In this document: positions 20,843 through 22,048 of the stretch, in pieces
How the letters are laid out: every line of letters begins with the position of its first letter
Position numbering within the stretch: position 1 is the stretch's first letter
Source: Patescibacteria group bacterium
GTDB lineage: Bacteria > Patescibacteriota > Minisyncoccia > Minisyncoccales > Staskawiczbacteraceae
DNA: 64,000 nucleotides
Reading direction: 5' to 3'
Assembly: GCA_018829965.1 (NCBI GenBank)
Contig: JAHJTG010000016.1
Span: forward strand, 93,537 to 157,536
Notes under the pieces: generated by a model
Databases searched by the model: none
Told to the model about the DNA's origin: nothing
What the model saw: only the letters and a program-made list of their open reading frames with translations
Program-made: the position numbers and the translations under genes

Positions 20843-22048
20843 TTAACGCAATGTAGCTCCCAAGTCCTGTTTAGTCTTTTCCCTAATTTCTTCTTGAATT
20901 TTATTTATCTCTTCATTTGTCAGCGTTCTTTCTGGCGAACGATAAACAATCCTGAACGTATAGCTCTTCTTGTCTTTTCCAAACTTACTTTCATCTTCGT
21001 ATTCGTCAATTAATTTCACCTCTTCAATAATTCCAACATTTGAATTTTCTGTCCCGACGGCTCTGCCGTCGAGGATCCTCGATGACGAAGTCATCGGGAC
21101 AAAATCTCTTACAATTTCGTAATAATTATTCAAATTTATATTTTTGTCTATCACAAAAGAAATATCTCTTGAGGTTTCCGGATACTTGCTTACTTCTTTA
21201 TACTTGCTATTAATATCTTTAAATTGGCTGGTAATTCTTAGGTCATCCGACCAAAGAACTCTAATATCTGGTATTCCCATTTTTACCATTGCTAACCTAT
21301 CTATCCCGAAGCCGAAAGCCCAGCCATTGTAAACTTCCGGATCTAAACCAAAATTCTTCAAAACCTGCTTATGAACAAGTCCCGACCCAACAACTTCCAT
21401 CCATTGCTCACCCAACTTAATATCCATCTCTACTGACGGATCCGTAAAAGGGAAAGAGTCAACGATAAACTTATGCTCAACCTTTTCTCCAAAGATACTT
21501 TTTCCGATATCGGCTAAAATATCTTTCAAATCTTCTAGGGTGATAACTTTTTGGTCTTTTTTGCAAATATATAGTCCGTCTATTTGATGAAAGGCAGGAA
21601 AATGATTTTTATCAATTTCATCTTTGCGGAAAACTATTCCAGTTGATAAAGCCCCAACACTCCCCTTTTCTTTTAATCTTTTAAAAATCTCAGGATCTCT
21701 TAAATAAAAAGGCCACATAACTGTTGTCTGCGTTCTTAAAACATATTCGTCTGTAAGGTAATAGGTATCTGTTTCTCTGCGACTCGGGTGGCCTTCTGGA
21801 GTATTTAAAACATCGAAGTTCTCTTCTAATGTAACCACTCTAGGAAAATCGACTAAATCAAAATCAGCAAATCTTGACAATTTTATTATCTGATTAGCTA
21901 AAATCTTTACAGGAGAATTCTGCTTCTTTGTAAGGTCAGGAAGGTTTAATAATTTTTTGATTCTCTCTGCTTTAATATCTTTCCTCTTCCCCAACTCCTC
22001 AATAATAGCGCCTTCTTTAGAGTTTTCTATTACGATATTTTTACGCAT
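20843..22048 (-). CDS. pheS: Phenylalanine--tRNA ligase, apparent single-chain type: PheS catalytic core fused to a C-terminal FDX-ACB (anticodon-binding) domain
   Basis: Motif 2 [19 protein letters not shown]. Motif 3 [30 protein letters not shown]. C-terminus [12 protein letters not shown]...[22 protein letters not shown]. Confidence 0.85.
   Translation of the reverse strand: [401 protein letters not shown]
21051..21100. repeat. GC-rich palindromic element type A, in frame inside pheS
   Basis: gtcccga-cggctctgccg-tcgaggatcctcga-tgacgaagtca-tcgggac. Translated [17 protein letters not shown]. Confidence 0.8.

Follow-up and report, generated by a model that had tools for sequence, protein, structure and literature searches.

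A predicted single-chain PheRS gene and its protein

The window analyzed here, a 64-kb stretch of DNA from a Parcubacteria-group (Patescibacteria) bacterium of the candidate phyla radiation (CPR), contains on its minus strand an open reading frame (ORF) of 401 codons plus a stop codon, with an ATG start (20843..22048), which encodes a predicted single-chain phenylalanyl-tRNA synthetase (PheRS). The protein is identical to NCBI MBU2540112.1, annotated as 'hypothetical protein KJ786_03050' of a Patescibacteria group bacterium. Its nearest homologs among the matches listed, with 72–83% identity, are from Staskawiczbacteria, Nealsonbacteria and 'Paceibacterota'. The start codon agrees with that of hundreds of homologs, and more than 4,600 homologs with the same architecture and length are found on independent assemblies. 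The gene is separated by 63 nt from gyrB, which lies 3′ of it on the same strand (18140..20779) and is followed by NUDIX, secE, nusG and rplK genes. Identified by Pfam and synteny, gyrB serves as the conserved downstream anchor in the comparisons below. The GC content is 33–38% throughout the window, and it is rich in ordinary bacterial housekeeping genes.

The top database matches of the protein are the eukaryotic organellar enzyme, which could point to a eukaryotic FARS2-like contaminant of the genome bin, or else to a chimera created by misassembly or a frameshift. However, the identical protein is present in NCBI, JGI, ENA and Logan assemblies, and homologs of 380–401 residues are found in their thousands on independent contigs, which reach 785 kb. 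The gene has no introns and sits among bacterial genes at a uniform GC of ~35%, and the bacterial sequences form a clade distinct from the eukaryotic ones (97.5% support). That independent assemblies repeatedly contain this gene in this context rules out an artifact, to which we assign a negligible probability.

Pfam searches assigned two domains to the protein. The first is a class II PheS catalytic core (tRNA-synt_2d, PF01409, E = 3e-58; residues 38–276, 21221..21937, minus strand, as for all other parts of the gene), which matches the alpha cores of bacterial PheS with a root-mean-square deviation (rmsd) of ~2 Å. The second is a B8-type ferredoxin-fold anticodon-binding domain (FDX-ACB, PF03147; residues 287–401, 20846..21190), with an E-value of 1.5e-22 and a score of 80.3 bits against a cut-off of 31.1. 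The FDX-ACB match is split into two stretches because of a 20-residue insertion. No other Pfam domain was found in the protein at E = 0.1, and PF02912, PF03483, PF03484, PF17759 and PF01588 were all absent; the coiled-coil N-domain of PheS, B3_4, B5, tRNA_bind and the beta catalytic-like module have no counterpart.

The core is preceded by a short N-terminal region (residues 1–37, 21938..22048), which stands in for the ~100-residue coiled coil of bacterial PheS. By alignment and modeling it contains a conserved LPDLTxK..SP motif and two predicted helices (residues 12–21 and 25–34 in the model), and the match to the NCBIfam model TIGR00468 begins only at model position 43. The two domains are joined by a hinge, defined by alignment (residues 277–286, 21191..21220). 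Here PheS runs to its full C-terminal end (...ITSQF), after which come the 6-residue linker KDINSK and the first residues of FDX-ACB, YKEVSKYP, a layout that matches human mitochondrial PheRS (mtPheRS). The modeled elements of the ferredoxin-like fold are strands at residues 292–301, 341–350 and 360–369, and helices at residues 307–315 and 378–396.

The class II motifs and the substrate pocket were located by mapping residues onto Escherichia coli PheS, and conservation was scored across 63 homologs of 43–82% identity. Motif 2 (23 residues, 137–159; 21572..21640) contains R141 (the ATP alpha-phosphate Arg), F153 (adenine stacking), H154, Q155 and D157 (Glu in E. coli). Four of these residues (R141, H154, Q155, D157) do not vary among the homologs; F153 is present in 60 of the 63 and replaced by Leu in the other three. 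The sequence FPFTDPS (residues 199–205, 21434..21454) contains T202 and the aromatic walls of the Phe pocket, F199 and F201; F199 and T202 are invariant, and position 201 is either F or Y. Motif 3 (15 residues, 242–256; 21281..21325) contains A244 and R251, both invariant, as is G246. T202 and A244 correspond to E. coli T251 and A294, known in E. coli as the residues that set Phe specificity. All ATP- and Phe-pocket residues checked are retained, save for one conservative Glu-to-Asp change.

An earlier note, made from the sequence alone, had recognized a PheS class II core and a C-terminal FDX-ACB domain in this protein. The motifs that it quoted for the core (motifs 2 and 3) and for the C-terminal domain are all present in the ORF, and the Pfam score bears out the second domain. 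Its view that a bacterium relying on a monomeric PheRS would lack the beta-subunit editing site agrees with the lack of a B3/B4 domain in the protein by Pfam, and the gene downstream is, as it had stated, gyrB and not pheT.

The insertion in the FDX-ACB domain is in frame, GC-rich and palindromic, as seen from its sequence and folding (50 nt, 21051..21100). The near-perfect palindrome GTCCCGATGACTTCGTCATCGAGGATCCTCGACGGCAGAGCCGTCGGGAC encodes most of an extra loop (residues 317–338), and the 20-residue insert accounts for the length of the protein, 401 rather than 381 residues. The hairpin has a predicted folding energy of about −34.1 kcal/mol (z = −5.9). In the structural model the insert is a surface loop, and the sole part with a low predicted local distance difference test score (pLDDT). 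The same insert is present in L011 (3493–3542) and L016 (10949–10998) and in some Staskawiczbacteria homologs, and a shorter variant is present in P0078 and P0101. The insert resembles the in-frame palindromic elements of Rickettsia, and there are hints that it belongs to a small family of mobile palindromic repeats. In another Parcubacteria genome (L082, 15098–15162), repeated GTCCCGAC / GTCGGGAC motifs form intergenic palindromes ~5 kb from the PheRS gene.

Upstream of the gene, a terminator-like hairpin with a T-run (22153..22176, minus strand), detected in a terminator scan, would close the preceding transcription unit, so that the PheRS gene would begin its own unit together with gyrB. 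Terminator-like sites are enriched in the region (5 observed, 1.2 expected). A promoter-like site, TTGATT-17-TAAAAT, lies 45 nt 5′ of the start codon (22094..22122, minus strand). It is a weak candidate from a consensus scan, since such sites are no more numerous in the region than in shuffled sequences. The ~1 kb 5′ of the gene (22049–23126) contains no recognizable gene. A 129-residue ORF with a GTG start (22492–22881) and an overlapping ORF of 132 residues match no Pfam family, and this ORF-poor stretch is flanked by terminator-like hairpins at 22153–22176 and 22936–22950. No remnants of pheS or pheT were detected in it by a hidden Markov model (HMM) scan.

The slot upstream of gyrB

The earlier note had remarked that no pheT lies alongside the fused gene. 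A scan of all six-frame ORFs with PheS and PheT HMMs found no second PheS or PheT in the 64-kb window beyond the fused gene, and none was found in a further ~15 kb of this contig. The same HMMs found none around the fused gene in 84 related loci (~1.3 Mb), so the remark holds in the window and in these loci.

A canonical PheT of the CPR type, 676–684 residues long and lacking the B2 domain, does occur in some Parcubacteria. The gene order in L007, which is the closed Nealsonbacteria genome CP179890.1, and in a second lineage (L005 and L006) is RRF–M50 protease–class II aminoacyl-tRNA synthetase–MreB–GatC–GatA–170-residue protein–...–pheS–pheT–gyrB–secE–nusG–rplK. Genomes with the fused gene (L009, a 612-kb contig; L040; L023) have the same flanks on both sides, with one gene at the position of pheS-pheT. 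Whether fused-gene or pheST genomes are compared, flanking proteins show 60–83% identity. Those of L007 are equally close to their counterparts in fused-gene genomes and in the other pheST genome, with identities of 71–79% for MreB, 79–83% for NusG, 59–65% for GatA and 65–69% for GyrB. PheS and the fused protein share 32–36% identity, and the PheS proteins of the two pheST genomes share 66%.

In a neighbor-joining tree of GyrB, the two pheST genomes fell into different subclades, L005 with L009 and L018 (77%) and L007 with L040 (82%), both within a clade with 100% support that otherwise consists of 23 fused-gene genomes; sampling for this tree favored fused-gene genomes, and gyrB lies next to the segment that is swapped. 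We also sampled metagenomic loci through gyrB, which gave 11 informative loci among the matches listed, most of the matches being distant bacteria. Six loci had pheT near gyrB (directly upstream in five), five had the fused gene beside gyrB, and none had both. A search for PheT and the fused gene on one contig found no case among the best 120 of at least 8,000 matches, a result that has no power.

The either/or occupancy of the slot is predicted by replacement, and not by an accessory paralog. The best explanation is that in this Parcubacteria lineage a single gene displaced pheS-pheT at the ancestral position 5′ of gyrB.

An accessory paralog would instead coexist with an ordinary pheS-pheT pair elsewhere in the genome, and could act on a non-tRNA acceptor or a special tRNA, or serve as a backup or resistance PheRS. 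This is suggested by the top NCBIfam match of the protein, a full-length match of 257 bits to NF051887 SrmL, for which the NCBI curators assume another role. PheT is present in some Parcubacteria, the sequence of this organism is covered only in part, and members of the family outside the CPR, in the metagenome-assembled genome (MAG) of an Oligoflexia bacterium and others, lie among unrelated metabolic genes. However, none of seven family members reaches the SrmL cut-off, and two pass that for mitochondrial PheRS. The gene lies in the exact pheS-pheT slot of equally related genomes, and the two states occur together in none of the 84 + 11 loci. A paralog kept in at least 577 species would be expected in the pheST sisters as well, but it was not seen within 22 kb around their slot. 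In addition, the Phe specificity determinants T202 and A244 are invariant. We consider an accessory paralog unlikely, and prefer the displacement of pheS-pheT by the fused gene.

In L005, a gene for a tyrosine recombinase of the phage-integrase family (5159–6028, minus strand) lies between a 165-residue gene and pyrF/phosphoribosyltransferase/pheS, just inside the variable segment between the conserved GatA block and pheS. This recombinase might be relevant to exchange of the segment. The canonical PheS of Parcubacteria (L005, 7809–8858; L007, 8973–9995) is strikingly ordinary, scoring 355 bits against Pseudomonas aeruginosa PheS, and carries a four-Cys insertion, CxxCxGxGCxxC, that is lacking in the fused family and in E. 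coli. The Parcubacteria PheT has no B2 (tRNA_bind) domain, as has been noted for the CPR (PMC5370408).

Similarity to mitochondrial PheRS and origin of the fused gene

A phmmer search of the PDB with the window protein returned human mtPheRS as the top match (E = 6e-48), covering both domains, followed by the PheS alpha chain of bacteria (E. coli, E = 3e-40). An AF2 model built from 63 diverse homologs had a pLDDT of 92.3 and a predicted template modeling (TM) score of 0.88. A first model, from an alignment of 12 near-identical sequences, had a pLDDT of 53 and was discarded. In a Foldseek search of the PDB, all six crystal forms of human mtPheRS ranked first. The closed form (3CMQ) matched with E = 7e-33, TM scores of 0.75/0.74 and an rmsd of 3.1 Å over ~405 columns, and the open, tRNA-bound form (3TUP) with a TM score of 0.56. 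Bacterial alpha chains matched the core only, which is half of the query (TMq ~0.52).

Among the curated NCBIfam models, the highest score was for NF051887 SrmL (257.2 bits, cut-off 300), followed by TIGR00469 pheS_mito (219.5 bits, cut-off 258.35), TIGR00468 pheS (192.4 bits, cut-off 237.45) and TIGR00472 pheT_bact (75.8 bits, cut-off 402.65), the last matching only positions 733–798 of 798 (the last 66). The TIGR00469 cut-off is passed by P0032 (265.6 bits), which is 80% identical to the window protein and lacks the 20-residue insert, and by the more distant P0133 (264.3). It is missed by the insert-free relatives P0030 (244), P0139 (180) and P0142 (206). The shortfall of the window protein against pheS_mito is probably caused by its 20-residue insertion. 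For SrmL, the cut-off was reached by none of the seven family members tested, the six relatives scoring 195–270 bits.

The protein does not classify as a canonical PheS: it scores below TIGR00468, lacks PF02912, and has no partner pheT in the window or in the 84 loci. Nor does it classify as a PheT, having no B3_4, B5 or catalytic-like module beside FDX-ACB. The mitochondrial-type architecture proposed in the earlier note is supported by the sequence matches in the PDB, the Foldseek ranking, the score of P0032 against TIGR00469, and signatures in common with the mitochondrial enzymes, described below.

We then considered the origin of the fused gene. A recent local deletion could have joined the core region of the organism's own pheS with the 3′-terminal part of pheT, re-inventing the mitochondrial architecture by convergence. 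This would account for a position identical to that of pheS-pheT, directly 5′ of gyrB, and for a junction in which PheS retains its whole C-terminus and B8 begins after it. However, the fused core is no closer to the PheS of neighboring CPR bacteria (about 32–37% identity) than to that of E. coli (37%), whereas the CPR PheS proteins are mutually 66% identical. Likewise, the FDX-ACB domain is nearer to a eukaryotic mitochondrial-type sequence (68.6 bits) than to CPR PheT (43–44 bits).

A neighbor-joining tree of the core was built from 208 columns, with two eukaryotic sequences (one of them transcribed from PDB alignments) and no outgroup, and long branches may attract each other in it. Canonical PheS, including that of the CPR, was separated by a bipartition with 100% support. 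The bacterial fused sequences had 97.5% support and the two eukaryotic sequences 92%, and the grouping of fused sequences with CPR PheS had a bootstrap of 0%. The mean distance was 1.05 between fused and mitochondrial sequences, and 1.28 between fused sequences and PheS. A tree of FDX-ACB, too short at 98 columns to be resolved, separated PheT from fused plus mitochondrial sequences with 47–83% support, depending on one badly aligned sequence. A recent in-situ fusion of pheS and pheT was rejected on the sequence distances and the core tree. With several signatures in common with the mitochondrial enzymes also counting against it, a local deletion is very improbable; an in-situ fusion that is ancient and has since diverged fast is possible.

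The signatures common to the fused and mitochondrial proteins, and not found in canonical PheS, are GWAFG(F/L)G (GFAFGMG in canonical PheS), IPDIRxxW, R(K/R)D(E/Q)ID in motif 2, and E(M/L)(D/E)I after FPFT. The fused and mitochondrial proteins alone also share the loss of the coiled coil, and a junction at which the PheS C-terminus is complete and a short linker leads to (Y/F)xxxSKYP. Together, these features favor a single origin of the fused architecture, as judged from sequence. The displacement of pheS-pheT may have occurred either by an ancient in-situ fusion or by recombination in the conserved flanks that brought in a gene from outside.

A broader scenario is that the fusion of the core with B8 arose once in bacteria, that the Parcubacteria family, with its scattered members in other bacteria, is the sister or the source of the eukaryotic FARS2/MSF1 enzymes, which eukaryotes would then have acquired as a bacterial invention, and that within Parcubacteria one- and two-gene PheRS are interchangeable cassettes repeatedly swapped 5′ of gyrB, leaving whole lineages of free-standing cells without PheRS editing. 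We put this forward tentatively, and regard it as rather doubtful.

Distribution, proposed function and known systems

To survey the family, motifs specific to it (GWAFGF, FHQ[IM]DGL) were searched in the GTDB species-representative genomes, giving at least 600 stretches, and tblastn confirmed at least 577 sites. The best 80 of these belong to Staskawicz-, Nealson-, Moran-, Taylor- and Wolfebacteria and other Paceibacterota/Parcubacteria. In 29 of these 80 loci gyrB directly follows the fused gene, head to tail, and in 13 more about one gene lies between them. The mean pairwise divergence of the fused protein (0.32) is similar to that of the GyrB ATPase region (0.33), which fits an essential gene. 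The pairwise divergences of the two are weakly correlated (Spearman 0.29), which may reflect transfer among Parcubacteria or saturation.

Three members from outside the CPR (L091, 10001–11245; L092, 10001–11296; L093, 10001–11185), with cores 50–54% identical, come from the Oligoflexia MAG and from two Gram-negative-looking contigs with MlaA, outer-membrane beta-barrel protein and transposase genes. They nest inside the bacterial (Parcubacteria) clade of the core tree, which suggests that they arose by transfer. A search of a library of 1.84 billion representatives with the C-terminal domain gave mostly fragments, and yielded the B2-less PheT seeds and divergent fused members.

Taken together, we judge it likely that the gene encodes the working, and most likely the only, PheRS of this organism, as a bacterial member of the single-chain 'mitochondrial-type' family. 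Several observations weigh against this assignment. The window protein lies below every curated NCBIfam cut-off, and the best model is the 'mystery ligase' SrmL. Throughout the bacterial fused family, Asp takes the place of the E. coli Glu (FHQxEG) that makes contact with the amino group of Phe, and the anticodon-binding domain is broken by a 20-residue loop modeled with low confidence. No tRNA-Phe gene is present in the 64-kb window. The fused gene lies away from gyrB in 20 informative loci of the 80, and the members outside the CPR have unrelated, non-housekeeping contexts, where a role as paralog is possible. Finally, canonical PheT exists in organisms labeled Nealsonbacteria, Minisyncoccales and Patescibacteria, and this organism has been read over 64 kb plus ~15 kb. 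Such PheT genes in related organisms, together with the partial coverage of this genome, make a second PheRS elsewhere formally possible; on the assignment that we favor, the remainder of the genome would contain no pheST.

By analogy with human mtPheRS, the protein would act as a monomer in the synthesis of Phe-tRNAPhe. The class II catalytic module of the single chain would bind ATP and Phe and form Phe-AMP, and the short hinge (residues ~277–286) would link it to the ferredoxin-fold domain that reads the GAA anticodon. Without tRNA, the enzyme would adopt a closed resting state, its anticodon-binding domain packed against the core, and binding of tRNAPhe would open it. Such an opening at the hinge is expected from the match of the model to the closed state. 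With no B3/B4 site, Tyr-tRNAPhe and m-Tyr-tRNAPhe would not be cleared in cis, and accuracy would come from the synthetic site alone. The host would then have no cellular editing of these products, and its translation probably proceeds without the proofreading that normally guards against tyrosine.

Elsewhere in the window, the GyrB protein has 879 residues, with a lysine-rich N-terminal extension of ~90 residues and a mini-intein (Pfam Intein_splicing, residues 529–675, CWFGKT...VFVHNS) in the Toprim region (~18755–19195). The GyrB proteins of relatives have 645–662 residues and no intein, and that of the Nealsonbacteria genome L007 has 1179 residues and a larger intein. A 585-residue coupling ATPase of the TrwB/VirD4 type (45888–47645, minus strand; TrwB_AAD_bind, TraG-D_C, HerA-type) with a treble-clef zinc finger suggests that this very small genome encodes machinery for DNA transfer or uptake. 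Two adjacent genes (61375–62466 and 62589–63731, minus strand) encode Fic-domain proteins of the AMPylation type, with the Pfam assignment read from the identical contig L095. In a 541-residue protein (5738–7363, plus strand), DUF5667 occurs together with a serine protease inhibitor domain of the Kazal type, which is unusual in bacteria, and the neighboring ORF of 545 residues (4004–5641) has no family match. The window also contains a class A RNase P RNA (41904–42277, minus strand; 136 bits), and genes for tRNA-Asp(GTC) and tRNA-Met(CAT) (33617–33692 and 33759–33831, minus strand).

Human mtPheRS, described as a chimera in which the alpha catalytic module is joined to the B8 domain of the beta subunit, has full activity as a monomer (PMC3275996). 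A 2010 review described the prokaryotic PheRS heterotetramer as conserved in all known species, and stated that no monomeric enzyme other than mtPheRS has a class II catalytic module (PMC3275996). Our literature searches, which included SrmL and PheRS in the CPR, found no published description of a bacterial single-chain PheRS. Members of the family are currently labeled 'alpha chain' in JGI and, in many cases, 'hypothetical' in NCBI, and NCBIfam has the SrmL model. The kind of enzyme is thus already known; the apparent novelty is that a large bacterial lineage employs it instead of pheST.

An apparently sole single-chain PheRS in a large bacterial radiation breaks the rule that all prokaryotes use the heterotetramer. 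If this is true, cells without a PheRS editing site offer a natural test of the need for proofreading of Phe/Tyr and m-Tyr, and bear on whether episymbionts with small genomes tolerate or exploit mistranslation. The family also provides concrete bacterial relatives, and a candidate origin, for mitochondrial PheRS, which has so far been traced just to 'a bacterial ancestor'. The swap would have replaced a core translation enzyme in place, with close genomes differing only in the cassette at the slot. Since pheS and pheT serve as universal single-copy marker genes, a practical consequence is that fused-gene genomes will seem incomplete for pheT.

Compared with the mitochondrial enzymes (FARS2, MSF1, TIGR00469, 'PheRS-M' of AARS Online), the window protein has the same combination of PheS module and B8/FDX-ACB domain with the same junction layout, and likewise lacks the N-terminal coiled coil and B1–B7, and hence the editing site. 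It differs in being encoded in a bacterial chromosome, within a string of housekeeping genes, and in having no targeting peptide. It is only 28–30% identical to human mtPheRS, lacks the ~30-residue insertion that mitochondrial enzymes have after motif 2, and has Asp for Glu in FHQxE/DG as well as the palindrome-encoded 20-residue loop; the bacterial sequences form their own clade. With the canonical (alpha-beta)2 PheS/PheT it shares a homologous core, the ATP and Phe pocket residues, a C-terminal anticodon-binding domain and the slot 5′ of gyrB. Unlike the canonical enzyme, the fused form is one gene, lacks the coiled coil, B1, B3/B4, B5 and B6/B7, and does not branch with the PheS of its own phylum. 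SrmL (NF051887), compared via its model only, aligns with the window protein end to end (model positions 4–347 of 349), so that SrmL must have the layout of a PheS core plus FDX-ACB.

A further parallel comes from diatom plastids, in which a monomer-type PheRS repeatedly took over from the alpha/beta enzyme of bacterial type and the gene for the beta subunit disappeared (PMC4494062). The monomeric PheRS of diatom and cryptophyte plastids resembles the present case in that a single chain displaced alpha/beta PheRS in a translation system of bacterial derivation and the beta gene was lost. In the plastids, however, a duplicated nuclear gene for the mitochondrial enzyme was retargeted, whereas here the swap would have taken place within a bacterial chromosome, at the same locus.

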